DNA of 64,000 bases from Gammaproteobacteria bacterium (GTDB lineage: Bacteria > Pseudomonadota > Gammaproteobacteria > JBIOEC01), in NCBI GenBank assembly GCA_965279305.1, contig OZ257143.1, positions 1,477,994 to 1,541,993 on the forward strand, written 5' to 3'. This document shows, piece after piece, positions 493 to 19,013 of this stretch; positions within the stretch are counted from its first letter, which is position 1, and each line of letters begins with the position of its first letter. The position numbers and the translations under genes were made by a program. Under the pieces are notes generated by a model. The model was not told the DNA's origin. It made no database searches and saw nothing but the letters and a program-made list of their open reading frames with translations.

Positions 493-1671
493 ATGCATAC
501 TAAGCAAAAAGAAGCATTTAAATACACTTCGCTTAATCGTATAGAAAGCCAAACCTATGCCAAACCCTCTATGGCATCTAAAAAAACGATTAATAAACTA
601 TCTACGTTGGCAAAAGCGAATACTACTTTAGTATTTGTCGATGGTTTTTATAGAGAAGATTTATCGAAACTAGCTTTAATCACCGGTGTAAAATTCGAGC
701 CTGCTGTTTTATCTTCTAGAAAGTCTGAGTCTGCTTTAAATCATAGTGATGATTATGTCTCTTCTTTGCCTTTTTTAAAGGTTAATTCTACTTTAGATGG
801 CTTTATTATTGAAGTTAAGCCAGGTGTTAACGCCGGTATTATTGAAATCTTTTTTTATACTAGCGCTAATGCTGAACGTACATCCGCGCGTAAATTAGTT
901 CAATTAAGAAATAGCATTTATTGCCATGCCGACAGCCAAATAACTGTTATTGAGCGTTATATAGGTGAAACAGCGGCAGAAAGCTTAACCAATAGCGTAA
1001 CAGAAGTGCAATTAGATACTAATGCGCGTTTAGATCATATTAAAATTCAAACCGAAGCCACCTTAACCGATCATATCGGGCAGTTATTTGTTGACCTATC
1101 TAAGAATAGTACCTTAAACAGTTATATGCTTTCGTATGGTGCTAATTTAGCTCGCAATGAAGTGCATACACGCTTACTACAAGAACATGCTACTTCTAAC
1201 TTATATGGTCTTTTTATGCCGCAAAAAAATCAGCATATGGATCAATATACGGTAATGGATCATGTGTCTTCACATGCCAATAGCCATGAATTTTATCGGG
1301 GCATTTTATCCGATAATGCTAGAGGCGTTTTTAATGGCAAAGTGATGGTTCGCCCTGATGCTCAAAAAACAGTGACTAGGCAAATTAATAATAATTTATT
1401 ACTGTCTTCTAATGCTGAAATTGATACCAAACCTGAATTACAAATTTATGCGGATGATGTTCAATGTAGTCACGGCGCTACCGTAGGGCATTTAGATGAG
1501 CAGGCTCTGTTTTATATGCAAGCGAGAGGAGTTCCTTTAGCGGAAGCTAAAAATATATTATTGAGTGCATTTGCTACTGAAATATTACAATCTATTTCTG
1601 ATCTGGCATTGAGAGATCAATTGCAAACCGATTTATTGGCCTATTTGCCAGGAGCTTCTTATGGCCAGTAG
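493..1671 (+). CDS. sufD: Fe-S cluster assembly protein SufD
   Basis: A 392-aa ORF lies immediately after sufC and overlaps sufS by 11 bp, the usual sufCDS order and size. Its C-terminal region (ADDVQCSHGATVG) is typical of SufB/SufD. Confidence 0.8.
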   Translation: MHTKQKEAFKYTSLNRIESQTYAKPSMASKKTINKLSTLAKANTTLVFVDGFYREDLSKLALITGVKFEPAVLSSRKSESALNHSDDYVSSLPFLKVNSTLDGFIIEVKPGVNAGIIEIFFYTSANAERTSARKLVQLRNSIYCHADSQITVIERYIGETAAESLTNSVTEVQLDTNARLDHIKIQTEATLTDHIGQLFVDLSKNSTLNSYMLSYGANLARNEVHTRLLQEHATSNLYGLFMPQKNQHMDQYTVMDHVSSHANSHEFYRGILSDNARGVFNGKVMVRPDAQKTVTRQINNNLLLSSNAEIDTKPELQIYADDVQCSHGATVGHLDEQALFYMQARGVPLAEAKNILLSAFATEILQSISDLALRDQLQTDLLAYLPGASYGQ

Positions 1672-2881
1672 AGCTGACTTTCCTGGATTACATCAAGAAG
1701 TCAACGGACAACCCCTGATTTATTTTGATAATGCAGCTACCACTCAAAAACCTTTATCAGTCATTGAAGCTGTTGATCACCATTATCGATTTGATAATGC
1801 TAATGTGCACCGTGGTGTTCATGTTTTAAGTAGCCGCGCGACCCATGCTTTTGAAAAAACTCGCTCTTTGCTGGCAGAGTTTATTAATGCTGAGTACTTA
1901 CATGAAGTGATTTTTACTCGAGGAACCACTGAAGCGATTAATTTAATTGCTTACTGTTACGGCTTACCTTTTTTGAAAAATGGCGATGAAATTCTGATCA
2001 CTACGATGGAGCATCACGCAAATATTGTGCCCTGGCAAATGGTATGTGAACAAACAGGCGCTACACTTAAAGTAGTTCCTTTAGTAGCTGATGCAGATAG
2101 TGGTGAGTTAGATAGAGATGCGTTTAGCGCACTGTTAAGCAAAAATACCAAAATAGTTTCGTTTCCTCATATCTCTAATGTCTTAGGGACTATTAATCCT
2201 GTTGCGGAATTGATTGCAGAAGTGCGAGAAAAAACCTCTGCTATTGTGGTGATTGATGGTGCGCAAGCGATTGCTCATCTTCCTATTGATGTACAAGCAT
2301 TGGATTGCGATTTTTATGTGTTTTCAAGCCATAAAATGTATGGTCCATCAGGTATTGGTATTCTTTATGGTAAAACTGCTTTGCTAGAACGTATGCCGCC
2401 TTTTCAATTCGGTGGCGAAATGATTAAAAGCGTTAGCTTTGAACATACCGAATATAATGATCTTCCTTTTAAATTTGAAGCAGGAACACCTAATATTGAA
2501 GGGGTAATTGGTTTGGGTGCTGCAGTAGAATATCTTAAAAAAGCTGATGTTAAAAAACTAGCCGCTCAGGAAAAAGAATTATTAAACTATGCCACTGAAC
2601 AAATGCAAAATATTCCTAATATCCGTATTTTGGGAACATCAAAGCATAAAGCAGCTATGATTACGTTTGTGATCAAGGGCATTCCGGCGCAAGATATTAG
2701 TACTTTGCTGGATATGTCGGGTATTGCGATTAGAGTAGGGCATCATTGTGCTATGCCTTTACATGAGTCTTTAGGGCTTAGCTCTTCTGTGCGCGCTTCT
2801 TTTGCTTTTTATAATACTAAAGAAGAAATTGATAGATTTATTATTGCTTTGAATAAAGCGCTAAAGGTGTTACATGCATAA
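1661..2881 (+). CDS. sufS: Cysteine desulfurase SufS (PLP-dependent, group II)
   Basis: It has the PLP-lysine motif SSHKMYGPSGIG and the catalytic cysteine loop RVGHHCAMPL. At 406 aa and inside the suf operon, it fits SufS. Confidence 0.9.
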   Translation: MASRADFPGLHQEVNGQPLIYFDNAATTQKPLSVIEAVDHHYRFDNANVHRGVHVLSSRATHAFEKTRSLLAEFINAEYLHEVIFTRGTTEAINLIAYCYGLPFLKNGDEILITTMEHHANIVPWQMVCEQTGATLKVVPLVADADSGELDRDAFSALLSKNTKIVSFPHISNVLGTINPVAELIAEVREKTSAIVVIDGAQAIAHLPIDVQALDCDFYVFSSHKMYGPSGIGILYGKTALLERMPPFQFGGEMIKSVSFEHTEYNDLPFKFEAGTPNIEGVIGLGAAVEYLKKADVKKLAAQEKELLNYATEQMQNIPNIRILGTSKHKAAMITFVIKGIPAQDISTLLDMSGIAIRVGHHCAMPLHESLGLSSSVRASFAFYNTKEEIDRFIIALNKALKVLHA

Positions 2882-3419
2882 AGCACCGGTTGTATTAACT
2901 CGCGAAGTTGAAGCATTGCTGATCCCTTCTGCAACGCCTGTGATGTTACGAGAAGGTGAAGTAGTGAGAGTTACCCAAGCTTTAGGTGGCGCTTATACGG
3001 TGCAAGTGGGTGGTAATTTAGCCCGTATTGAAGGTAAAGATGCCGATGCTTTAGGTTTAGAAATAGAAGAAGCGTGTTCTACTCTTGAAAAAGTAGCAGA
3101 CGGTCCTGTAGAAGTTGAAGTTTTATGGGAAGCGCTTAGAACGTGTTACGACCCTGAAATTCCAGTGAATATTGTGGATTTAGGTTTAATTTATAAATGT
3201 GAAGTAGTTGCAGTTGATGCTACTCATAACAAAGTAGAAATTGAAATGACACTGACGGCACCCGGTTGTGGAATGGGCCCTGTATTGGTATCCGATGTAA
3301 GAAACAAAATCGAAAAAATAAAAAATGTGACAGAAGTAGATGTACAATTAGTATTTGACCCGCCCTGGGATCAATCGCGAATGAGTGAAGCCGCTCAACT
3401 CCAGTTAGGTTTATTATAA
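2874..3419 (+). CDS. sufT: DUF59/MIP18-family Fe-S assembly protein (SufT-like)
   Basis: The C-terminal half carries YDPEIPVNIVDLGLIY, the DUF59 signature. It overlaps the sufS stop by 8 bp, indicating translational coupling. Confidence 0.6.
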   Translation: MHKAPVVLTREVEALLIPSATPVMLREGEVVRVTQALGGAYTVQVGGNLARIEGKDADALGLEIEEACSTLEKVADGPVEVEVLWEALRTCYDPEIPVNIVDLGLIYKCEVVAVDATHNKVEIEMTLTAPGCGMGPVLVSDVRNKIEKIKNVTEVDVQLVFDPPWDQSRMSEAAQLQLGLL

Positions 3420-3448
3420 TTGCTGGTGGAAAGTAGGAAGTATCTACT

Positions 3449-4882
3449 ATGTTTAATTTATTTAATTGCTTTAGGAGCCGCCAAAAAACTCCATTATTTA
3501 CTGATTTTGCTTTATCTCCTTTGATGAAGGATCCTCCTTATATCCCTTTGACAGAAATACCTGCCTTAGTAGAACCAGAAAAGCCTGAAACATTAATCGT
3601 GCTATCTCTAGATGCAGATGGGATGGTTTTTAATCCCCGTTGGGTTGCATATAAACTAGATTGTATAAAAAGAAATATCGCATGTGATAATGATAGTATT
3701 TTTAAGTTCAATAGGCCATTGGTGGGTTATATTCTTGAGGTTTTACTTGAGCATGGTGTTGATTCTGCTCAGGTAATGGTTGGGTCCATGCGCCAATCAA
3801 AATTTGCTGATAATCATAATATAGAAAAATTTCCAGGAACGGGATCGTATTTTTATTGGTTAGAAATGTTTTGTAACTTTTTTAATGAAGAGTGCAAAGA
3901 CGATAATCTCTCATATCGATTAAAGCTTAACCGTTATTTACTATCAGATACTTATAGTGATACTTCTCATGAATTTAGTTTCATCAATGCGCTTGCTGGA
4001 CAAGGTCTTTCTGGTATTGAACTTATTGAGTCTGTAAGTAAAGTTGATAGAGGAAAGTTCGGTATTTTATATGCGCAAATGTTTAAGATAGCTACCGAAA
4101 ATCCAAATAAAAAAATCATATATCGGTTTGTCGATGATCACCAGGAAACGTTAGATGCTTTATATGATATTTTTAGAAAAAACATACGGTATTTGCCTCC
4201 AAACGTATCTCTTGAAATAGTACGCCATTATTACAATTCTCTAGGAGAACCTGTCATTGATAGATCGCGTTATATTATTCACCCTGATCCTAAAAATATA
4301 ATGGATGAATGCTATGAAGAAACGTTGAGAAAAATAGCTAACTATGCAGAAGAAGGAAGAGATATCTATTTTGACTTAGAGTTGCAAGATGAGTTTCAGG
4401 GGTTTAGAGAGAAGATAAACGTACTTAGAAAAGTAGAAGTGATTGTACCTAATAATATTGATAGGTTGCATAGTCTTAGAAAAGAAGTGGAATCTTTGTA
4501 TGCCGGTTTGTTAGAACATTATTTTAGTTTTGATGATGATGGGATAGCTGATTGTATGAGCTCTGTTTTTTCAGAAATTCGGACTTTATATCATATCTAT
4601 ATCAAAGAGTCTGGTCGTTCAAACTTGGAATATTCTTTTGAAGCCATGAATGATTTTTGTTTTATGAAATTAATTTTATCGTATGTGAAAAACTTACTTG
4701 AAGGGCGTTTTGAAAATGGTTTGGTTTCCGGTTGTAGTCAATCTAATATAGAAAATATAGTAAAGGGTAAAATGGGGCTTTATAATACAGCTTCTTTGGC
4801 ATATGCTCTAAACACTCTTTATAATATAATAGTTTTCCCTACTGCTCCTGTAAAAGAAAATTTGACTCCTGTGGCAGGTTAA
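3449..4882 (+). CDS. Hypothetical 477-aa protein with no recognisable domain, inserted into the suf/rpsD core block; effector candidate
   Basis: It is a long clean ORF with local codon usage and no conserved motif I can recognise. Its position between housekeeping genes suggests an accessory insertion. Confidence 0.5.
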   Translation: MFNLFNCFRSRQKTPLFTDFALSPLMKDPPYIPLTEIPALVEPEKPETLIVLSLDADGMVFNPRWVAYKLDCIKRNIACDNDSIFKFNRPLVGYILEVLLEHGVDSAQVMVGSMRQSKFADNHNIEKFPGTGSYFYWLEMFCNFFNEECKDDNLSYRLKLNRYLLSDTYSDTSHEFSFINALAGQGLSGIELIESVSKVDRGKFGILYAQMFKIATENPNKKIIYRFVDDHQETLDALYDIFRKNIRYLPPNVSLEIVRHYYNSLGEPVIDRSRYIIHPDPKNIMDECYEETLRKIANYAEEGRDIYFDLELQDEFQGFREKINVLRKVEVIVPNNIDRLHSLRKEVESLYAGLLEHYFSFDDDGIADCMSSVFSEIRTLYHIYIKESGRSNLEYSFEAMNDFCFMKLILSYVKNLLEGRFENGLVSGCSQSNIENIVKGKMGLYNTASLAYALNTLYNIIVFPTAPVKENLTPVAG

Positions 4883-4896
4883 CTTAGAAGGCAAGT

Positions 4897-5205
4897 ATGG
4901 CAAATTGGATCAGCATTAATACCGTAGATAGTTTTACAGACACTCCCAGACAGTTTCTAGATAAAGACAATCTGCATATAGCGATATGTAAAATAGGGGA
5001 GCAATTTTTTGCTTTTGAAAGCATGTGTACTCATGCCATGTATGAGCTAGATGATGCGCCTATAGAAGGTAATGAGATAATCTGCCCTTTGCATGGAGCT
5101 CGATTTTGCTTAAAAACAGGAGAGGTAATGTCACCCCCCGCCTATGAAGACTTAAGGGTGTTCTCAACTCGCGTAAGGGAAGGTCTAGTTGAAATAGAGC
5201 TTTAG
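4897..5205 (+). CDS. Rieske [2Fe-2S] ferredoxin-like protein
   Basis: The 102-aa protein has both Rieske boxes, CTHAMYEL (CxH) and CPLHGARF (CxxH), at the correct spacing. Confidence 0.8.
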   Translation: MANWISINTVDSFTDTPRQFLDKDNLHIAICKIGEQFFAFESMCTHAMYELDDAPIEGNEIICPLHGARFCLKTGEVMSPPAYEDLRVFSTRVREGLVEIEL

Positions 5206-5209
5206 ATAA

Positions 5210-5467
5210 CTACTCATTGTTAAGTTGGTCGATAATAGTTTCAATTGAATAATCATTTGCCATGCCGCTTTCTTCACCTTCGATTAAAGCTGAACGTAAA
5301 GCGCTTAATTTGACTTCTCGTTCCTCCAGCATTCTAAGGCCAGCACGAACAATTTCACTAGCAGAGCCATAGCGACCGGATGATATCTGTTTATCTACAA
5401 AAAGATTGAAATGTTCGCCTAAGGCGATACTGGTTGTTTTTGCCATAAATTCCTCATGGATTACCAA
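5210..5467 (-). CDS. parD: ParD-family type II antitoxin (RHH/CopG fold)
   Basis: The 85-aa protein carries [28 protein letters not shown], matching the Caulobacter-type ParD1 motif (YATASEIVREAVRDWL). No parE follows it. Confidence 0.8.
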
Positions 5468-5504
5468 TAGATAGTATATGTTGGTAGTTTGATTTTGGCA
5501 AGCG

Positions 5505-5537
5505 GGGAGAGAAAATGCACCCCTCCAGAAGGAGGGG
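5505..5537 (-). terminator. Rho-independent terminator downstream of rpsD
   Basis: A perfect 7-bp GC stem CCCCTCC / GGAGGGG (5520-5526 / 5531-5537) with loop AGAA is followed on the minus strand by TGCATTTTCTCT. Confidence 0.5.
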
Positions 5538-5557
5538 CAACAAGAGTGAGTAAAAAC

Positions 5558-6178
5558 TTATAAACCTACGCGTGAGTAGTACTCAACGATTAAGTTCAAT
5601 TCTACTTGTAAGGGCACGTCGTCTGATTGAGGCGCCTGGGTTACGGTAGCGGTAAACTCTTTAGTGTTTACGCTTAAGTAGGCTGGTAAGCTTAAAGAAG
5701 GGTTTTCGATGGTTTCGATTACCAACGGCACACCTTTAGAGCTTTCTTTAATACTAATCACATCGCCTGCTTCAACATGATAGCGAGGGATATTCACTAA
5801 TTTACCATTTACTTGAATATGCTTATGAGACACTAGCTGACGAGCAGCGGGTAGGGTAGGTGCAAAACCTGCACGGAACACTACGTTATCTAAGCGAGAT
5901 TCCAACATTACTAGCATTTCTTTACCAGAATCACCTTTAGAGCGAGCCGCAGCACGCATATAGCCTCTTAACTGACGTTCACTAACGCCATAGTTAAAGC
6001 GAACTTTTTGTTTTTCACGTAAACGAACACCGTATTCAGTGCTGTTTTTGCCCTTACGGGTAGCGCCATGCTGACCAGGGGGATTTTTACGTTGATTTGG
6101 GGTCTTGCGGGTTAAACCGGGCAAGTCGGTTTGTAAACTACGTAATACTTTTAAGCGTGCGCCTGTAAATCGTGACAT
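5558..6178 (-). CDS. rpsD: 30S ribosomal protein S4 (stand-alone, Bacillus-type)
   Basis: The 206-aa protein has MSRFTGARLKVLRSL..PGQHG....EYGVRLREKQKVRFNYGV..RQLVSHKHIQVNG, which is close to firmicute-type S4. It is monocistronic rather than part of an alpha operon. Confidence 0.85.
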   Translation of the reverse strand: MSRFTGARLKVLRSLQTDLPGLTRKTPNQRKNPPGQHGATRKGKNSTEYGVRLREKQKVRFNYGVSERQLRGYMRAAARSKGDSGKEMLVMLESRLDNVVFRAGFAPTLPAARQLVSHKHIQVNGKLVNIPRYHVEAGDVISIKESSKGVPLVIETIENPSLSLPAYLSVNTKEFTATVTQAPQSDDVPLQVELNLIVEYYSRVGL

Positions 6179-6487
6179 ACTATTCTATATCCATCCTTTA
6201 AATAATTATTAGCCCAGCAGTACTGCCTATACCGACCAGCCACTGGAAAGTCGCCCAAAATAGCATATCCAAGCCTCAATTGCAAGGGAGCCTAGGCTTT
6301 TTTGGCCTTCTGATCAGCTAGTATCTAATCGCTAAGTTGGTTAGCGTGTATTATAATTGTCTCTATTATTTAAAACCGCTTTGGCGGGTGATAGGGGCAA
6401 GAAAATGTCAGCTTCTTATATTCTCATTGCATTACAGTGGTTGCTAGCGCCAAGTATAGGGTGTAGAATGCTCCACTTGTTATCTAT

Positions 6488-6564
<77 letters not shown>

Positions 6565-7035
6565 TTTAAGCATTTCAGAACGTTTCAAAACGTTCCTAAC
6601 TCCTTGTAATTACTCAGTTTTTTTGGTATCCTGTCTGCCAAGTTGTTCACCTTAAACCATCTAAATCCCACCCTAAGTGGGGGCTCTTCTCAAAACCGAA
6701 TTTAAAAACTCCTTATAAATCATTGGTTTTACCTAGGTCCAGGCAATTCAAGGAAATGCCCATACATCAAGGCATAAGTGGGGGTACTTTTATACACCTA
6801 AAAATGGGTGTCCCAGACGTTTTTAATTCATATAAAATTGAGCCGGCGGAGATTGGAAGGATCTTAAACGCAGTCAAATGGCTACCAGGGCTCTTTTTTT
6901 CACTCAATGTGCTTTTATAGAGTATCCCCTATGGGGTTTGTGCGGCCAGGAGAGTTACGGGGAGCCAATGGTCAGAAATAAATTTTGAAAAGGCAGAAAA
7001 TGACAGATACCAGGGGGCTAAAATGAAAATTCGTA

Positions 7036-7797
7036 CTAAGCATATTCTCCCTTTGTCCTCTCAGGCCATTGCCTATAACAATGAACCTGATGAGGGCTAA
7101 AATGACCCTGATAGGCCAATGCCGCTTGGTAAGATGGATCTAAAGAAATCAATGTTACCTGATAGGAATCATTTTCAATAATGAAGGGCTCTGCTGAAAG
7201 TATATTTATTTTATCTAGTGGATAACTAAGTCCACATCCTAAACATTTTAATAGCGCCTCCTTTTGTGTCCAAATCTCAAAAAATAGCTTATTTTGATCT
7301 TTATGTGGAACTATGGAAAGTGTCTTATATTCTTCAGCCGAAAAGAAATGCTGAGCTATGCTCATAAAATCAAAGTTTGAGATCATAAATTCTATGTCTA
7401 CCCCAATGTTTTGATATTGAGAAATTGAGATCAATATATAGTTACCTGCATGTGAAAGATTAAATTGAATATCCCTTATGTTTTGATGGTGTTTTATCCG
7501 CGGTTTTCCAAAGGATGAATAGACAATATGGATATCAGTAGGAGGTAAAGCTAAATATTGCCCTAGTAAGTAACGCAACGCTCCACGAGCAAGAATGTAA
7601 CGTTGGCGATCCTTCTCAAATATATATTTTTTTGATTTCTCCTGTTCATCGGCAGCCAAAAAAGACTGGAGTTGCAATTGATGAGGGGAAAGTTGATCGA
7701 GTGTAAAGCACCATAAATGAATGTTATCACTCGGTAAAACCCAGTTATTCAGACGTAAGGGAGGTGTTATTGGAAGTTCAATTTTTAAAAAAAACAT
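7036..7797 (-). CDS. Sfp-type 4'-phosphopantetheinyl transferase
   Basis: It has the GVDIEFM (G-x-D) motif and the WTQKEALLKCLGCGL (W/F-x-x-KEA-x-x-K) motif. It sits near an NRPS carrier domain. Confidence 0.8.
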   Translation of the reverse strand: MFFLKIELPITPPLRLNNWVLPSDNIHLWCFTLDQLSPHQLQLQSFLAADEQEKSKKYIFEKDRQRYILARGALRYLLGQYLALPPTDIHIVYSSFGKPRIKHHQNIRDIQFNLSHAGNYILISISQYQNIGVDIEFMISNFDFMSIAQHFFSAEEYKTLSIVPHKDQNKLFFEIWTQKEALLKCLGCGLSYPLDKINILSAEPFIIENDSYQVTLISLDPSYQAALAYQGHFSPHQVHCYRQWPERTKGEYA

Positions 7798-8696: not shown

Positions 8697-10133
8697 ATGT
8701 TCCAGAAGTATGCTTCATTTGCCGGGTTGAGTCTTGGTTTCTTTATTATTATGATGGACATAACCACTGTACCATTGATGTACCCAACCCTTATGAATGT
8801 GTTTGATGTTAATCCGGCTATGGTCGCTTGGGTCAATAATATTTATCTCATTACTTATGCTTCATTTATTCTTTTAGGAGGTCGGCTTGGAGACTTCACA
8901 AATCGAAAGATTGTATTACTGATTGCTTATTTGGCTATAGGGGTAGGAGCAGCAATTAGTGGTGCAGGACAAAGCTTGTCAGATGTAATTATTGGTCGCG
9001 CATTGATGGGTGTAGGAGCGGGATTATTGACACCACAGAGCATGGCATATATTTCTATTCTTTTTGCGAGTGGAGGTAGAGGAACTGCACTGGGTATCTG
9101 GGGAGCTGTAGCTGGTATTGCCGCTGCTACTGGGCCTATTGTTACCGAGATATTCTTGACAATGGGGGATTGGCGTTGGGTGATGTGGATCAACATTCCT
9201 ATCGTGCTTGTTTGTTTTTTAATTTCCGTTTTGAGTTTACCCAATGTTCCCGGCCGTGGTATTAAATTCTGGGACACTACTGTAAGTGTTTTGTGTGGAG
9301 CGTGTTTGGCAGGAATTATTCTTGGAATCCAATTCATTAATGCGTCTAAATCAATTATAAGCATAGGTGGTGCTCTTTTTATAATGGGAGGTGTGGCTAT
9401 AAGTGTCTTGATTAGAAATGAATTGAAGAAAAAACAGGGATACATTTTGTCACCCGAATTATGGGTTGATAATATTTTTCTCAGAATATGTTTAATTTCA
9501 GGGCTACTTGGATTAAGTCTAACAGCTTTTTATCTTCCTTTAGTATTTCTTTTAGACGTACGAATGAATTTAGGCCCTGTGGCTATAAGCATGGTCATGT
9601 TTACTATCGCGCTGGCTAATGCATTAGTTGGACCATTCGCAGGTAATCTTTCAGACCGTATGGAGCCAGAAATAATTATTAGACGTGGTTTGATTTTATT
9701 TGCAATTGCAAATGCTTTACTTGGTTTTATTGGTATATTCCTGCCTGAAGGAATTTTGGCCTTAGTAGCACTTTTTGCCGTTATGTTTATTGCTGGAGCG
9801 GGTACTGGTTTAGCTTTTGCGCCTCTTGCTAATTTAGCCGTGGGTCGTGCTCAAGTAGCAACTCTAGGTCGTGCTGCCGCTTTTTTCAACTGTGCGCGCC
9901 AAATATCAAGTGCATTAGGTGGTGTGATTGTAGCTATTGTTTTTGATTGGATAATACGCTTACAATTAGAACATGACATTGAAATAACTACTACAACCCT
10001 TCGTGAATCATCGACTATTACTGCTAATGCCACTTTAGCTTGTTTTTTGTTTATTGCTATTAGTTTGTCGGTAGCTGCTTATCTATCTTGTAGAAGTGAG
10101 CAGGAGCTTGTAGTAGATGAATCTGGGGCTTAG
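8697..10133 (+). CDS. MFS transporter (14-TMS drug:H+ antiporter-like), putative exporter
   Basis: It carries MFS motif A, GGRLGDFTNRKI, and is hydrophobic and helix-rich throughout. It lies in the NRPS locus. Confidence 0.8.
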   Translation: MFQKYASFAGLSLGFFIIMMDITTVPLMYPTLMNVFDVNPAMVAWVNNIYLITYASFILLGGRLGDFTNRKIVLLIAYLAIGVGAAISGAGQSLSDVIIGRALMGVGAGLLTPQSMAYISILFASGGRGTALGIWGAVAGIAAATGPIVTEIFLTMGDWRWVMWINIPIVLVCFLISVLSLPNVPGRGIKFWDTTVSVLCGACLAGIILGIQFINASKSIISIGGALFIMGGVAISVLIRNELKKKQGYILSPELWVDNIFLRICLISGLLGLSLTAFYLPLVFLLDVRMNLGPVAISMVMFTIALANALVGPFAGNLSDRMEPEIIIRRGLILFAIANALLGFIGIFLPEGILALVALFAVMFIAGAGTGLAFAPLANLAVGRAQVATLGRAAAFFNCARQISSALGGVIVAIVFDWIIRLQLEHDIEITTTTLRESSTITANATLACFLFIAISLSVAAYLSCRSEQELVVDESGA

Positions 10134-10471: not shown

Positions 10472-11530
10472 TTGACACAATCGAAGGTATTATTGATGAC
10501 AAATTCAACTTCTTTTGGGATAAGTGCATTTGGATATTCATTTGGCGAAAAACAAAATGTGGAAGAAACTGCATGCAATTTTGTTTCTGATCCGGAAAGA
10601 GTTTTTAAATGGGATTGTCAAACCTACTATCGTTCACCCCCTGATCGATTTGCCCTTGATCTGGCAACTGATGCGGCACGTGAAGCTATAAGTAAAGCAA
10701 ATATCGACCCTAATAGTATAGATTTAGTAGCATTTGCTTCAGCAGAAATAGCAGAATATTTATACTGGGATTCCTCAGTTGCACTTGCACGTGCACTGGG
10801 CATTGAAAGAACGCAAACAATGCTACTAAATAATGAAGGTTGCAGTGCAGGGATAAGAATCTTTGGAGCCATTGCAGGAGTCTTTGCAACGCAACCGGAA
10901 ATTCAAACTGTTTTAGTAGTAATAGTTAACCGTGTGAGTGAATATCACAGGAATCGTATGAAGGTTGTTAATTGCATACTAAGCGACGGAGCTGTAACTG
11001 CCGTTTTACAACGTGGCCATCCTCATAATCAATATTTGGCTTCAGACCATTTCGTCTATCCAGAATTTTGCGATTTTTTTCGAATGGATTATGGTGGAAC
11101 AAAAGCCCCCATTACTCCTGCAGGTTGGACTTGCCATGATGAGCATGGTTACGATAAAATATATGAACACTTTGGTGATGATATAGAGAGAATGCAAAAC
11201 TTTTTAACAGTACAGCGTAATGAACGGTTAGCAGAGGTGGTTCAACGTTCTTGTGCACGTGCTAATATATCTAAAGATGATATTTCACATTTCTTTTATG
11301 TTGCTGATTCTCGCCCAGGAGCTATTGCAGAAATTGTAAAACCTTTTGGAATTCCTATCGAAAACACTAACCTTGAATTAGCAAGAATGTATGGGCATAT
11401 GGGGGCTGCTGATCAATTTTTTTCTTTAGGAAAATTTATAGAAAGTAGACATATGGGACCGGGAGATATAGCCGCCATGGCGGGTATTTCATCCGGAATT
11501 CAATGGTGTTCCACTTTGTTTAGAGTATAA
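10472..11530 (+). CDS. FabH-like (KAS III family) thiolase-fold protein with non-canonical catalytic residues
   Basis: It aligns to FabH along its length: EGCSAG to AACAGF (catalytic Cys), SDGAVTAVL to GDGAGAAVL, and the C-terminal GISSGIQWCSTLFRV to GGGFTWGSALVRF. The canonical His and Asn positions appear substituted (YVADS and YGHMG). Confidence 0.65.
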   Translation: MTQSKVLLMTNSTSFGISAFGYSFGEKQNVEETACNFVSDPERVFKWDCQTYYRSPPDRFALDLATDAAREAISKANIDPNSIDLVAFASAEIAEYLYWDSSVALARALGIERTQTMLLNNEGCSAGIRIFGAIAGVFATQPEIQTVLVVIVNRVSEYHRNRMKVVNCILSDGAVTAVLQRGHPHNQYLASDHFVYPEFCDFFRMDYGGTKAPITPAGWTCHDEHGYDKIYEHFGDDIERMQNFLTVQRNERLAEVVQRSCARANISKDDISHFFYVADSRPGAIAEIVKPFGIPIENTNLELARMYGHMGAADQFFSLGKFIESRHMGPGDIAAMAGISSGIQWCSTLFRV

Positions 11531-11534
11531 TCTG

Positions 11535-14500
11535 ATGAATGAAACTATTTTCCAAGCATTTGAAGAACAAGTTAAAAAAACACCTGATTCTATTGCACTT
11601 CTTTTTAAAGAAGAAAAACTTAGCTATAAAGAATTAAATGAAAAATCTAATCAAGTCGCTAGATCCCTGCGTAATCTCTACAAAAAAAATATAGGATTCG
11701 ACCTTAAACCGGATACTCTTATTGGCATTTGTGTTGAACGTAGTTTAGACACCGTTATTGGAATATTAGGAATATTAAAAGCGGGTGGTGCATATGTGCC
11801 AATTGATATTGCCTATCCAGAAGGACGAATCCAATTTTTATTAGAAGATACTAAAAGCCCTTTTATCGTGACGCGGAGGCATTTGCAAGAGAAATTAAAT
11901 AAAATCCATAACAACACATTGCATCAGTTTTTCTTAGACGATCTTTCTTATGATAATGAAAGCAAAGATAATTTAAGTATTATACTAGAACCCAATCATT
12001 TGGCCTACATTATATATACATCAGGAACTACCGGAAAACCAAAAGGTGTTATGCAGACTCATCATAATGTTATGCGCCTATTTACGGCAACACAGGATGT
12101 ATTTGAATTTAACGAAACAGATGTATGGACATTATTCCATTCCTATGTATTTGATTTTACGGTGTGGGAGTTATTGGGTGCTTTAATATATGGTGGAAAA
12201 CTGGTAATACCCAGTCTTGATGAGGTTAAAGATACAAGTAAGTTTTATGATTTATGCGAAAAACATAAGGTTACTGTGTTAAATCAAACACCATTAGTCT
12301 TTTATCAATTTATTGAGGAAGCAATTAATCGTAAAGAAAAACTGAATAGTTTAAGATGCATAATTTTTGGTGGAGATTATCTTAATATTTCTCAATTGAA
12401 ACCTTGGTGGAATCAGTATGGTTTTCTAAAACCTAAATTAATTAATATGTATGGAATTACTGAAACAACGGTATTTGTTACACATAAAATCCTCACTGAA
12501 GCGGATATAAATAAAGGTTCTATCATTGGCACTGTAATTAAAGATCAAAAAGCTTATGTTTTGGATGAGAATTTAAAACCCGTACCCGTCGGAGTTGTTG
12601 GAGAATTATATGTGGGTGGTGCTGGTCTTGCCAGAGGATATTTGAATAGAGAAGAAGTAACACAGGAAAGTTTTATTATCAATCCTTATGCCACAAATGA
12701 AGATCTATTGAAAGGCTATAACCGTATTTATAAAACGGGAGATTTAGTCAAATGGTCTACAAATGGGGATTTAGAATATATCGGCCGTAATGATAAACAA
12801 GTTAAACTACGCGGCTTTCGAATAGAACTGTTAGAAATTGAAAGTATTTTAAACACTTTTACTGGAATAAAACAAAGCACGGTATTGTTAGATAAGAAAA
12901 GCAACAATCCATATTTAATAGGTTACTATCGTTCAGAAGCAAAAATAGATGAGGAAATATTACGATCACATTTAGCTAAACATCTACCGGATTATATGGT
13001 CCCCAACGTTTTAGTCCATTTAAACAAGTTTCCCATTACTATCAATGGAAAATTGGATGTAAACGCATTACCTTGTCCCAATTTTAATTCTACTCAATCT
13101 TCCATAACACTCAAAAATGAGATTGAAAAGGATGTGGCTGCAATTTGGTCGGAAATTTTAGGAATTGATATAATTGGCACAAATGAAGATTTCTTCAGAA
13201 TTGGAGGTGACTCAATTGTAAGTATAAAACTAGTCCTAAAATTGAGAAATAAAGGGTATCATTGTAATGTAAAAAATATATTTGAAAATAGAACCATTGA
13301 AAGCCTAAGCCACTTTTTGAAATCATCTGATATACAATCTAATAAAATTGAAGCAGAACAAGGGTTGTTAACTGGCGAGGTTGATTTATTACCGATTCAA
13401 CAATGGTTTTTTAAAAACAAATTTGATAAGCAGAATCATTGGAATCAATCTTTTTTAATCAAGGTTCCATTATTGGATGTTAATAAATTAAATCATGTCC
13501 TTGAGAAATTAATTGAGCATCATGATGTGTTACGGTTGGTTTTCAAAAAGACAACAAATTTTTATAAACAATTTTATTTGAAAGAAATTAAAATTCCTCT
13601 CATTAATACCTTGGATAGATCTGAACTCTCTGATCAACAACTAATTAATATATTTACCAAATGGCAAAGTGATTTTGATATAGAGAATGGTCCTTTATGG
13701 AAGATAGGCTATGTTACTGGTTATAAAGATAATACCGCTCGGATATATTTTGCCTTGCATCATCTTATTATAGATTCTGTTTCATGGAGAATTTTGATTG
13801 ATCATTTGAAATGTTTGTATGAAAGTAAGGAATTACCCCCAAAAACCAGCAGCTACCGTCAATGGGTGAGGGCTGTGCAACATTATGCGACTTCGAATAA
13901 TCAACAATTAAGTTATTGGGAACAACATTACATCCCTCAAGTACTAGAAGATGATTTTAAATTTCTTAATGAAAATACCGCACATAATATTAAAAATATT
14001 AATCTTGTCACATTAAATGAAAGTTTGACGAAAATTTTATTAAGGAAAGCCAACAAAGCCTATCATACCGAAATTAATCACTTGTTACTCACTGCCTTAG
14101 GATGTGCACTAAGGGATTTAACGAATAAAAGTGAACATATTATTCGTCTTGAAGGGCATGGTCGTGAAAAAATCAATGAAATTATAGATGTTAGTCAAAC
14201 TGTCGGCTGGTTTACAATACTTTATCCTGTCAAGCTTATGGTGAATGACTCATTAGAAAAGTCTATTCTATCTATCAAAGAAATTTTAAAAAGTATTCCT
14301 GACAATGGAATTGGATACAGTGCACTTAAATATGCAAATAGCGAAAATTCTCTTTGTAAACATTGTCCATCGGGAATTAGCTTTAATTACTTGGGCCAGT
14401 TTGATACAGAAACCAGTTTGTGGCAAATTGCCGCAGAAAACTCTGGAAATAATTACGGTGCTAATGCTGATGGAAATCTACTAACGATCACAGGCTGGGT

Positions 14501-14648
14501 TATTGATGGTAAATTAGAATTTGAAATCGTAAGTTGTATGAACGCAATCAAGAGTGAACAATTTTCAAAATTCTTTCAGTCTATTTTAGAAGAAATAATA
14601 GTACATTGCGCAGATTTAGTTAGTAGCGACAAAAAGGCGTTAGTTTAA
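11535..14648 (+). CDS. Non-ribosomal peptide synthetase, single A-T-E module (adenylation, peptidyl carrier, epimerization)
   Basis: A-domain cores are present: A3 LAYIIYTSGTTGKPKGV, A4 FDFTVWE, A5 NMYGITETT, A7 YKTGD, A8 GRNDKQVKLRGFRIELLEIE and A10 NGKLD. The carrier domain has FFRIGGDSIVSIKL, the GGDSI type that precedes E domains. The epimerization cores E1 PIQQWF, E2 HHLIIDSVSWRIL, E4 EGHGRE, E5 QTVGWFTILYP, E6 GIGYSAL and E7 FNYLGQFD are all present. No condensation or thioesterase domain is seen. Confidence 0.9.
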   Translation: MNETIFQAFEEQVKKTPDSIALLFKEEKLSYKELNEKSNQVARSLRNLYKKNIGFDLKPDTLIGICVERSLDTVIGILGILKAGGAYVPIDIAYPEGRIQFLLEDTKSPFIVTRRHLQEKLNKIHNNTLHQFFLDDLSYDNESKDNLSIILEPNHLAYIIYTSGTTGKPKGVMQTHHNVMRLFTATQDVFEFNETDVWTLFHSYVFDFTVWELLGALIYGGKLVIPSLDEVKDTSKFYDLCEKHKVTVLNQTPLVFYQFIEEAINRKEKLNSLRCIIFGGDYLNISQLKPWWNQYGFLKPKLINMYGITETTVFVTHKILTEADINKGSIIGTVIKDQKAYVLDENLKPVPVGVVGELYVGGAGLARGYLNREEVTQESFIINPYATNEDLLKGYNRIYKTGDLVKWSTNGDLEYIGRNDKQVKLRGFRIELLEIESILNTFTGIKQSTVLLDKKSNNPYLIGYYRSEAKIDEEILRSHLAKHLPDYMVPNVLVHLNKFPITINGKLDVNALPCPNFNSTQSSITLKNEIEKDVAAIWSEILGIDIIGTNEDFFRIGGDSIVSIKLVLKLRNKGYHCNVKNIFENRTIESLSHFLKSSDIQSNKIEAEQGLLTGEVDLLPIQQWFFKNKFDKQNHWNQSFLIKVPLLDVNKLNHVLEKLIEHHDVLRLVFKKTTNFYKQFYLKEIKIPLINTLDRSELSDQQLINIFTKWQSDFDIENGPLWKIGYVTGYKDNTARIYFALHHLIIDSVSWRILIDHLKCLYESKELPPKTSSYRQWVRAVQHYATSNNQQLSYWEQHYIPQVLEDDFKFLNENTAHNIKNINLVTLNESLTKILLRKANKAYHTEINHLLLTALGCALRDLTNKSEHIIRLEGHGREKINEIIDVSQTVGWFTILYPVKLMVNDSLEKSILSIKEILKSIPDNGIGYSALKYANSENSLCKHCPSGISFNYLGQFDTETSLWQIAAENSGNNYGANADGNLLTITGWVIDGKLEFEIVSCMNAIKSEQFSKFFQSILEEIIVHCADLVSSDKKALV

Positions 14649-16023: not shown

Positions 16024-17655
16024 ATGTCAAATGACCTGATTTATCTAAAAGAAGACGCTTATTTCGAACCTTTGATAAATCACTGGTTTGCGTGGTCTTA
16101 TCTTATTCCACCGGTTCAGGCTTCACGCTATATCACTAACACTCATAAAAGGATCATGTCTTCCTTCGTTGAAGACACGCAAGTGCACATCTTTGGGTCA
16201 AAAGAACCAGCACTCGCAGGCGGTGACTTTCTCAACGCTCGTGACGATCAGGTGAAAGACATCAAAGCATTGCTGGCGGAGTTCGATGAAAAGCATGCCG
16301 ATGTAGTTAAGCTTTCTGAAGCAGTACAGGAGCTCGACGAGATGATCCGCGCACATATCAGCGGCGAGTCTATTGAATATATGTATGAAAAAGTTCCTCT
16401 GCCGCTCAAAGGCTTCGTCGAAATCGGTATGGATATGAACCACAACCCCTGTTATCGTTTGCTGGAGCATTTGCTTTACAACTCAGAGCATTATCGCAAA
16501 TCACTACAAAGTATCTACTTCGGTTTACTTTCCAAGATCGAAGAGCGTCCTTTCTGTTTTTCGACACCGCGTTTGGCCGATGAGAACCACATTCAATTGG
16601 CGATGGATTTCTGTGCACCAGAGGTAGATATTTTAGTCAAGTCGCGCACTGAAGGCGTACCGTGCGAGATGGTGAATGATATATTTGCGCGCTTCGAGAC
16701 TCGCGGCGGCCTTGATTATCGCGAATTGTTCACTACTGAGCCGCCGTCAAGACGCCGTGAGCCGGTGAGCGATGACAGCTTGAAATTGACTTTCCTCGGT
16801 CATGCCTCGTTTATGATAGAAACCAAAGATATCAATATTTTAATTGATCCGGTAATTCCCATTAGAGGCAAAAAATATGCCGATGACGTGATTAGCTATT
16901 CTGAGCTACCCAAGAAAATCAACTATATTTGCATTACCCACAATCACCATGACCACTATAACCTTGAAACCTTGCTACAGTTGCGCCATAAAACGGACAA
17001 GCTGGTTCTACCCATCAACAATGGTGGAACATTGCCGGATCCGTCGATGAAGCTGATAGCCAAACAATTGGGCTTTAAAGTAATTGAGGTGGACGACTTT
17101 GATGAAATCGAGATCCCAGATGGCAAGATAACGGCGATCCCATTTCTTGGCGAACACGGCGACCTCAATGTGCGTTCAAAAACCGTGTGGCTTATAGAAC
17201 TCAAAGGTAAGAAATACTTCTTCGGCGCCGATGCCACCAACTATAATCCGCAAATGTACCGTCATGTCCAAAAGTTGGTTGGGGATGTCGATGTATTGGC
17301 TATCGGAATGGAATGTGTCGGAGCTCCCTATTCTTGGCTCTATGGTGCACTTAACACTAGGGACGTCAGTAAAAACATCACAAATTCACGTCGTCTGAAC
17401 GGCTCCAATGCCGATCAGGCTTATCATATGGCAGATACTTTCAATGCTAAACAAGTTTATCTTTATGCAATGGGCATGGAACCTTGGTACAAGTACTTTA
17501 TGGGCTTAGTTTATAACGAGAACTCACAGCAAATAATTGAGTCAGATAAGATGATTAAGCGCTGTGAAAATAAAGGAATACCATGTCAACGCTTAGCTCT
17601 TAACTGCTACATTCTGACAGATTTAGGTAGTAGCCACAAAATGGCGCCAGTTTAA
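16024..17655 (+). CDS. Metallo-beta-lactamase-fold protein, 543 aa, with a roughly 255-aa N-terminal domain; possible CmlA-like non-heme diiron beta-hydroxylase
   Basis: The C-terminal half has KLTFLGHASFMIE...ILIDP and the ITHNHHDHY (HxHxDH) metal-binding motif. The size and domain order (helical N-domain then MBL fold) resemble CmlA-type beta-hydroxylases that act on carrier-tethered amino acids. It sits next to the NRPS. Confidence 0.6.
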   Translation: MSNDLIYLKEDAYFEPLINHWFAWSYLIPPVQASRYITNTHKRIMSSFVEDTQVHIFGSKEPALAGGDFLNARDDQVKDIKALLAEFDEKHADVVKLSEAVQELDEMIRAHISGESIEYMYEKVPLPLKGFVEIGMDMNHNPCYRLLEHLLYNSEHYRKSLQSIYFGLLSKIEERPFCFSTPRLADENHIQLAMDFCAPEVDILVKSRTEGVPCEMVNDIFARFETRGGLDYRELFTTEPPSRRREPVSDDSLKLTFLGHASFMIETKDINILIDPVIPIRGKKYADDVISYSELPKKINYICITHNHHDHYNLETLLQLRHKTDKLVLPINNGGTLPDPSMKLIAKQLGFKVIEVDDFDEIEIPDGKITAIPFLGEHGDLNVRSKTVWLIELKGKKYFFGADATNYNPQMYRHVQKLVGDVDVLAIGMECVGAPYSWLYGALNTRDVSKNITNSRRLNGSNADQAYHMADTFNAKQVYLYAMGMEPWYKYFMGLVYNENSQQIIESDKMIKRCENKGIPCQRLALNCYILTDLGSSHKMAPV

Positions 17656-17834: not shown

Positions 17835-18683
17835 TTATAAAATAGTACATTTGATTCCATTATTATCAGTCACCGGCGCATGTACTGTTACTGTTCCAGG
17901 TTGCGTATTGACATCAACTCTACCTGTTACTGCGCCAGGCTCTACAGTAAATGTAGGATTTATCGCATTAGGTTCAATACGAGCAGCAGCGAGTGCAATC
18001 CCATTTCTACTTAAACCAACAGATAAACCCGAAGTTACTTCTTTTAGCATGTTGCTGAATGAAACTACTATTTGATAGAAAGAAATCCCCAATTTATTTA
18101 TTAATGAGTTAATTGAAAAAGCTATCATTAATAAAGCTGCTATTTGATATTTGTAATCAGTAGGATCAGTTCTATAGTGAATGACTATTCCTATAAAGGC
18201 AATAGCTACGGCCATTCCAATGCTCGGTTGTCTTTGAAAAAAATTTACTGTATTTAGATTTGCAGGAGTCGGTGCTGCTAAGCGGGCTTGAAGTCCATCT
18301 ATAAGATGCTGAGCATTACTTAATTCTCTTTCTCGCTGAAGATCATCTCTTATCCGGGCCGTCAAATAAGCACGACCGGGATCCCAATCTTGAATAAACC
18401 TAGCTAAATCAGAATTTCCATATTGGTTCGCTATATCTACTGCCAGGCAATTATAAGTTGCAGTCCTTATTGTACGATCTGCTCCATTTTCTAGTAGTAT
18501 AGTTGCAGCCTCTCGGAATCCTCTCCAGCCACAATATATCAAAGCGCTAGGCTCATTTAAGCCACCGCTAGGGGGTAATCTAACATTAATATTTGCTCCT
18601 CTATCCAGACAGTCTAATATTTTTCGAGGATCATTTTTGGTAACTGCATCAAAAAATTCAGCATCAATAGGACTTAATGGCAT
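17835..18683 (-). CDS. Ankyrin-repeat protein with a central hydrophobic segment and C-terminal CaaX box (CTIL); effector candidate
   Basis: It has ANK repeats (GANINVRLPPSGGLNEPSALIYCGWRGFREAATILLENGADRT), a transmembrane-like stretch (AVAIAFIGIVIHY...IAALLMIAFSI), and its last four residues are C-T-I-L. Confidence 0.7.
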   Translation of the reverse strand: MPLSPIDAEFFDAVTKNDPRKILDCLDRGANINVRLPPSGGLNEPSALIYCGWRGFREAATILLENGADRTIRTATYNCLAVDIANQYGNSDLARFIQDWDPGRAYLTARIRDDLQRERELSNAQHLIDGLQARLAAPTPANLNTVNFFQRQPSIGMAVAIAFIGIVIHYRTDPTDYKYQIAALLMIAFSINSLINKLGISFYQIVVSFSNMLKEVTSGLSVGLSRNGIALAAARIEPNAINPTFTVEPGAVTGRVDVNTQPGTVTVHAPVTDNNGIKCTIL

Positions 18684-19013
18684 AAAATTTCCACCCTTAT
18701 AAAGGTTAGGTCTCTTAATCGTAGCCTAAGTTTTAGTAAATGACAAGAAAAAAAGCATTTTAGAGTAGTGCCAGACATCTAAGTCAACTCTCATATGAAT
18801 TTTATCCTAACATATGCATTCTTGAGAAATATTTATCCCATTTTGTTTCAACAAATCCCAATAAACTTTGGGCATTTAGAATTTTGAAACAAAATACCCG
18901 CAATGGCATTAACATACACTCTTGGCTCATATCTCTCTTGATGCCTTATATTTGCAAATGTTATGCTTTCAAATTCATCATACCAACATGTTTACTAATA
19001 AAAAGGTGATGCT

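Follow-up and report, generated by a model that had tools for sequence, protein, structure and literature searches.

The window analysed here, 64,000 nucleotides of contig OZ257143.1 from a Gammaproteobacteria bacterium (assembly GCA_965279305.1), carries on its reverse strand a complete gene (17835..18683, stop codon included) for an ankyrin-repeat protein of 282 amino acids that ends in a CaaX box, the tetrapeptide C-T-I-L. The reading frame comes from the list of open reading frames (ORFs), and an identical protein is already on record in NCBI/ENA, on a contig of 1.87 Mb. The reverse complement of positions 17835-17849 reads TGT ACT ATT TTA TAA, that is, Cys-Thr-Ile-Leu and a stop, in agreement with a preliminary description of this DNA. 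The box, Cys279-Thr-Ile-Leu282, occupies 17838..17849 and the TAA codon 17835..17837, directly 3' of it (these and the other features of the gene are all on the reverse strand). Counted back from the true C-terminus, the cysteine is the fourth residue, the residue at a2 is aliphatic and the X residue is permissive. The preliminary description had allowed for a missed stop that would leave CTIL inside a longer protein. Stops were found in all three frames within about 25 codons downstream of the TAA, so that no read-through or frameshift extension is plausible, and in the gene of an orthologue the TAA likewise comes straight after the CaaX box, the contig continuing for another 15 nt. These two observations rule out a sequencing error that masks a longer ORF and place CTIL at the very end of the protein.

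The N-terminal ankyrin-repeat domain comprises about three repeats and covers residues 5-100 (18384..18671). A family profile (A1) compared with PDB matched ankyrin-1/2 and DARPins over residues ~6-114, with E-values down to 4.5e-16, which bears out the ankyrin repeats named in the preliminary description. In Pfam, the Ank_2 match of the single 282-aa sequence stayed below the cutoff (E 0.049; 14.6 vs. 27.3 bits), and its relatives gave stronger matches (9.5e-6 for the orthologue P0002 and 1.8e-15 for the more distant P0086). The ankyrin domain is followed by a charged linker at residues 101-150 (18234..18383), delimited in the A1 alignment and helical in a low-confidence model, where the orthologue has (RELEQ)n repeats. 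Hydrophobicity further along the protein had also been pointed out before, as one internal segment; we found two, at residues 152-172 (18168..18230; Kyte-Doolittle maximum 1.57, Wimley-White octanol dG -4.3 kcal/mol) and 181-202 (18078..18143; 1.60 and -6.0 kcal/mol), separated by a charged 10-residue loop, RTDPTDYKYQ. The remaining tail, residues 203-278 (17850..18077), is polar and rich in Thr, Val, Pro, Asn and Gly, with a hydropathy of ~0 to 0.4 and a short internal direct repeat, PG(A/T)VT (D2). It is a putative flexible linker presenting the CaaX box: the last 20 residues before the box are polar, flexible and impose no secondary structure on it. The sequence runs up to the box as ...HAPVTDNNGIK-CTIL, and both a polybasic patch and a second cysteine are absent before it. 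The 282-aa protein has no N-terminal signal peptide.

Acceptance by a eukaryotic prenyltransferase is documented for the CTIL motif, as distinct from the 282-aa protein itself. In humanised yeast, no more than four sequences were fully geranylgeranylated at a low level of human geranylgeranyltransferase I (GGTase-I), among them the CTIL of human OAS1 p46, and CTIL stayed modified in the reporter when farnesyltransferase (FTase) was absent (PMC11152559). The tetrapeptide is a CaaL box, a class assigned to GGTase-I (PMC11152559), so the earlier designation of the ending as a GGTase-I type box is sound. The natural example that had been cited with it, G-gamma-13, does end in CTIL, as seen in PDB entry 25st_G.

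Specific homologues of the protein are few. Among 5.8 billion protein clusters (~15 billion public proteins) we found only P0002, P0003 and P0005, proteins from soil-type JGI metagenomes that are near-identical to one another and represent one orthologue lineage. When 1.84 billion representatives were searched exhaustively with HMMER, thousands of generic ankyrin proteins came up, and the only further relatives were the distant P0024 and P0086 and a truncated remnant of 76 aa, P0095. The orthologue shares 57% identity with the 282-aa protein in the ankyrin domain only; its C-terminal half shows no significant similarity to that of our protein (BLASTP E 0.22), and a hidden Markov model (HMM) of the C-terminal module of P0002, P0024 and P0086, used in leave-one-out fashion, gave the 282-aa protein -0.2 bits. 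A MAFFT alignment had placed our C-terminal half with this module. On these two values we rejected such homology, and the "aligned cysteine" of that alignment is therefore not evidence.

The layout of the orthologue is nevertheless the same: a charged coiled-coil linker, two hydrophobic segments (Kyte-Doolittle 2.0 and 2.2), a short loop and then C-N-I-V-stop. To judge from the sequences, the layout and the terminal CaaX box are kept while the C-terminal sequence has been replaced, as predicted by selection on a short linear motif. Conservation of the motif across a family is an accepted criterion for ranking functional prenylation sites (PMC1847700), and among the homologues of the 282-aa protein it is seen as CNIV, in one independent lineage.

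The C-module of the orthologue occurs in other contexts. It is joined to an ILEI-like N-domain in P0024 (36% identity to P0002, E 1e-35) and to ankyrin repeats in P0086, as in P0002, so that its N-terminal partners differ. The shared module is made up of a coiled coil and a pair of hydrophobic segments, besides a helical region and the motif LRGxGxxxAxAIxxG...F.P. The gene of P0024 (locus L085, 8001-9284) is surrounded by TPR, pentapeptide and calpain-like genes, and the N-terminus of P0086 (locus L082, 364-2148) resembles a Sec signal peptide. A profile search with C-terminal modules (A2) returned the query itself only, and the window holds no further copies of the C-terminal module. Relatives of the 282-aa protein were found neither on plasmids (tblastn) nor in the PHROGs phage families. 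A metagenome scan by N-terminal peptide pattern yielded only a generic small-ankyrin array on an unrelated contig (locus L081, Ga0210003_1003487, 497..7172), made up of at least eight tandem ankyrin-repeat genes of 130-210 aa with similar N-termini (...DQDFFDAV...DQVKFY).

We give a somewhat better than even chance to the 282-aa protein being a translocated effector that is geranylgeranylated by its host, with translocation, lipidation and insertion as inferred steps. On this view, a putative type IV-like secretion system would carry the protein from the bacterium into the cell of its host, a eukaryote and probably a protist. In the host cytosol, GGTase-I would bind the C-terminal CTIL and modify Cys279 with a C20 isoprenoid, after which -TIL would be cut off by RCE1 and the newly exposed end methylated by ICMT. 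Anchored by its lipid, the protein would sit on the cytosolic side of a membrane of the host or of the vacuole, perhaps with help from the two moderately hydrophobic helices acting as an N-in/C-in hairpin, a topology that would bring the C-terminus within reach of cytosolic prenyltransferases. The ankyrin domain, with its ~3 repeats, would face the cytosol as a protein-binding module and recruit a host partner. A host-lipidated membrane effector had already been proposed in the preliminary description. The elements on which it was built (ankyrin repeats, hydrophobic region, CaaL box and stop) are present, and the box of the orthologue and the eukaryote-like neighbours of the gene add support; the AnkB effector of Legionella, named there as a precedent, is an analogy only, as discussed below. 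A more elaborate version, which we consider possible but unlikely, is a dual-anchor effector in an undescribed gammaproteobacterial order. The hairpin and the host geranylgeranyl would then act jointly, the arrangement would have been selected despite full sequence turnover, and the relatives would join C-terminal cassettes of a similar kind to N-domains of several eukaryote-like types (ankyrin, ILEI).

Several observations weigh against a host-lipidated effector. Since P0002, P0003 and P0005 are near-identical, conservation of the motif rests on one independent lineage. Boxes with Val at the X position, as in CNIV, are less typical prenyltransferase substrates. The box is not universal among the relatives that carry the module, as P0024 ends in CAFNKT and the end of P0086 lacks a cysteine. 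The hydrophobic segments of the 282-aa protein are borderline for membrane spans by the Kyte-Doolittle and Wimley-White scales. AlphaFold2 models were of low confidence and uninformative on the fold, with a mean predicted local distance difference test (pLDDT) score of 40.8 and a tail that is mostly coil when a 3-sequence alignment was used, and with a pLDDT of 48.5 for the ankyrin domain alone. No secretion genes occur within the 64-kb window, and a host association and an effector-translocating system of this bacterium are both putative. Finally, a few CaaX-like endings are expected by chance in a typical bacterial genome, and for this reason a lone CaaX ending is weak evidence.

A rival view is that the CaaX ending is functionless, the protein being an inner-membrane or cytoplasmic ankyrin protein that never meets a prenyltransferase and CTIL and CNIV being chance or inherited neutral endings. 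We regard this as unlikely, although it has the most to be said for it among the alternatives. In a control of 1.21 Mb of unrelated bacterial loci, scanned with a permissive CaaX pattern, 3 of 1845 ORFs of at least 150 aa had such an ending (0.16%; CSAS, CTVT and CSAA), none of them of the CaaL type. A rate of ~0.1-0.2% per ORF, the missing canonical box of P0024 and P0086, and a secretion apparatus or signal that for the 282-aa protein is only surmised are all in keeping with a functionless ending, and two hydrophobic segments could equally anchor a protein in the bacterial inner membrane. However, the box is present in both lineages though their C-terminal halves are dissimilar, for which the probability under independence is ~0.002. 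Furthermore, two of the 37 long ORFs of the window (at least 150 aa) have CaaX endings, both C-T-I-X (CTIL and CTIQ; binomial P ~0.002), with Cys making up 0.97% of the residues in the long ORFs. The ankyrin domain and the eukaryote-like neighbours also fit an effector, an N-terminal signal peptide is absent, and the moderate hydrophobicity is as in secreted transmembrane effectors and unlike typical inner-membrane proteins (PMC12981334).

The second CaaX ORF lies ~8 kb from the ankyrin gene, at 26337..27752 on the forward strand. It encodes 471 aa and ends in ...SSLATTYSCTIQ-stop, its box at 27738..27749 being CTIQ, with X = Gln, of the farnesyl type. It has no match in Pfam, NCBIfam or PHROGs and no homologue in the 5.8 billion protein clusters.

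Translocation and lipidation may also be considered apart. The protein could be a translocated effector that is anchored by its hairpin alone, the terminal cysteine being unmodified, a relic, or used otherwise, as in S-palmitoylation, a disulfide or a metal contact. Two hydrophobic segments are indeed found in the 282-aa protein, in its orthologue and in the module relatives, P0086 and P0024 retain the hairpin without a canonical CaaX box, and transmembrane anchoring and lipidation are treated as separate strategies in reviews (PMC12981334). On the other hand, any CTIL exposed to the cytosol would be an efficient GGTase-I substrate, the marginal hydropathy of the segments (1.57 and 1.60) is such that a second anchor makes sense, and the box stands exactly four residues from the end in both lineages, a position that other uses of a cysteine do not need. 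We thus find anchoring by the hairpin alone improbable. Still less probable, in our estimation, is that the host lipid is farnesyl, added by FTase, or that either lipid serves interchangeably: CTIL in a Ydj1 reporter was also fully prenylated with human FTase present (PMC11152559), AnkB is farnesylated (PMC2916131), and neither the CNIV of the orthologue nor the CTIQ of the neighbouring ORF is a classic GGTase-I box, but CTIL is modified without FTase and fully geranylgeranylated at low GGTase-I, and the natural CTIL proteins, OAS1 p46 and G-gamma-13, fall in the class assigned to GGTase-I.

Host geranylgeranylation of the 282-aa protein would have parallels in Legionella pneumophila, where AnkB and the Pel proteins are prenylated by the host and prenylation governs their localisation (PMC2916131, PMC13081727, PMC4322725). 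AnkB (LegAU13/Ceg27, ending in CVLC/CLVC) is likewise small and bacterial, and it too combines ankyrin repeats with a CaaX box at its C-terminus. It differs in having an F-box, two ankyrin repeats and a farnesyl group and no hydrophobic hairpin, whereas the 282-aa protein has a CaaL box and two hydrophobic segments. We rejected the possibility that our protein is an AnkB/LegAU13 orthologue: it has no F-box, gives only a weak Ank_2 match at Pfam E <= 1 and shows no detectable homology, and the NCBIfam models, those for Dot/Icm Ank effectors included, do not match it. The Legionella frame of the preliminary description is an analogy only.

The Pel/CAAX proteins (PelA, C, D, E/LegG1, H, I and K, and LseA) are unrelated scaffolds that share only the terminal CaaX box and a Cys-dependent localisation to membranes or the vacuole (PMC13081727, PMC4322725, PMC7542358). 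Their boxes, decoded from cloning primers, include CTII in PelC, CNLL in PelE and CVLM in PelA (PMC13081727), and the first two come very near to CTIL and CNIV. There is no sequence kinship with our protein, and the Pel proteins are established as Dot/Icm substrates in Legionella, while for the 282-aa protein both the secretion route and the lipidation are presumed. SifA and GtgE of Salmonella, effectors of another lineage, also associate with membranes through a C-terminal Cys motif that is prenylated by the host. Both are substrates of type III secretion and have other folds, without ankyrin repeats or a hairpin, and SifA is S-acylated in addition. Human OAS1 p46 and G-gamma-13 carry the identical tetrapeptide, which in its OAS1-derived form is a full GGTase-I substrate. 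These proteins are eukaryotic and have no homology to ours beyond the four residues, a likeness of the kind expected from short-linear-motif mimicry.

A further resemblance concerns the hydrophobic segments. According to a 2026 review, type IVB transmembrane effectors typically have two moderately hydrophobic segments, a short loop and an N-in/C-in topology (PMC12981334). The 282-aa protein may share with these Legionella and Coxiella effectors a pair of moderately hydrophobic membrane segments with a short loop and the predicted cytosolic location of both termini; it differs in that its segments are borderline by hydropathy and in its CaaX box, with which such effectors are not described in that review. 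By analogy, the protein probably functions like the host-prenylated effectors of the AnkB/Pel/SifA class. It would be set apart from the described members by having both a CaaX box and a putative two-helix hairpin, as well as by its occurrence in an undescribed lineage.

The principle that bacterial effectors can be prenylated by the host has been known since 2005-2010, and to our knowledge it has been documented experimentally in a few pathogens only, L. pneumophila and Salmonella. With a soil metagenome-assembled genome (MAG) from a novel order of Gammaproteobacteria as the nearest public relative of the bacterium, a well-supported candidate would broaden the known taxonomic range of prenylation mimicry and would mark the bacterium as a likely associate of protists. 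The presence of hairpin and CaaX box together is unusual and, if real, would join two membrane-targeting strategies that are normally kept apart. Should the dual-anchor version be true, the hijacking of host prenylation would have arisen, or spread, well outside Legionella and Salmonella. The interest of the candidate thus lies in its taxonomic reach, in a box retained despite sequence turnover and in the possible dual anchor, and the protein is compact and cheap to test experimentally.

The genes on one side of the ankyrin gene include several with eukaryote-like domains. It is divergent from a gene for a eukaryote-type Ser/Thr kinase (19014..20747, forward strand; Pkinase E 7e-46), and a U-box plus ankyrin protein is encoded at 30542..32665 on the reverse strand. 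Three consecutive large ORFs occupy 42240..49291, also on the reverse strand, two of them with weak GTPase (MMR_HSR1/RsgA) matches. The same stretch encodes two giant TPR proteins, large GTPase-like proteins and many orphans. The kinase, the U-box/ankyrin gene and the large ORFs form a putative effector-like gene cluster that is broken up by housekeeping genes (tesA-like, ybbP).

Many of the orphan and eukaryote-like-domain proteins have Pro/Ala-rich tails, such as ...AAAPPPQSGAAPRA, ...LPPAPLAAKPRAA and ...LAPAPAPAEIPTPA. They are encoded, among others, at 24518-26215(-), 27759-30005(-), 30542-32665(-), 36797-40627(+), 42240-45143(-), 45161-47239(-), 47252-49291(-), 49741-50199(+) and 50382-51236(+). 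Proline makes up 15.9% of the last 20 residues in 17 orphan or eukaryote-like ORFs, against 4.0% in the bodies of the same proteins and 4.5% in the last 20 residues of 19 housekeeping ORFs (Mann-Whitney P 8e-5, post hoc). Such tails hint at a shared C-terminal export signal and hence at a common secretion route, and they may represent a lineage-specific secretion signal.

Upstream of the ankyrin gene, a Shine-Dalgarno-like AAGGGTGGA is found at 18690..18698 (reverse strand), 7 nt 5' of the ATG, and the N-terminus of the orthologue, MPLSP, is the same as that of the 282-aa protein. A consensus scan gave a weak match to a sigma-70-like promoter (TTGTCA-17-TACGAT; 18718..18746, reverse strand) within the 330-bp region shared with the divergent kinase gene; such a match does not in itself indicate function. 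This intergenic region also contains an imperfect palindrome, GCCTTATATTTGCAAATGTTATGC, at 18943..18966, which may be an operator site. The GC content at third codon positions (GC3) of the ankyrin gene is 0.21, similar to that of the neighbouring genes. This value, the Shine-Dalgarno-like sequence, the common MPLSP start and the identical protein on record all indicate that the gene is genuine.

Regarding the organism, a stand-alone rpsD gene for ribosomal protein S4 of the Gram-positive/cyanobacterial type (5558..6178, reverse strand) adjoins sufD-sufS (493..3419, forward strand). In a peptide-pattern scan, the nearest relative of this S4 was found in MAG GcC11-19, with 80% identity and the same suf-rpsD arrangement (locus L001), and other matches reached at most 53%. 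Its authors place this MAG, recovered from low-GC soil DNA, in a novel order within Gammaproteobacteria (PMC12477608). With such a nearest relative, Legionella serves here as an analogy and not as an identification, even if the S4 scan cannot formally exclude Legionellales, as the S4 is stand-alone and of a Gram-positive-like type. MsbA, SufS, the kinase and other proteins of the window are singletons in 90% clusters, and an Rfam scan of the window returned one tRNA only.

A nonribosomal peptide synthetase (NRPS) cluster lies on the other side of the ankyrin gene. It comprises genes for a phosphopantetheinyl transferase (7036-7797), a major facilitator superfamily protein (8697-10133), a ketoacyl synthase (KAS) III-like protein (10472-11530) and the NRPS itself (11535-14648), and it ends with a CmlA-like diiron beta-hydroxylase gene at 16024..17655 on the forward strand. 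The GC3 of the latter gene is 0.49, against 0.21-0.27 in its neighbours, which suggests a recent foreign origin.

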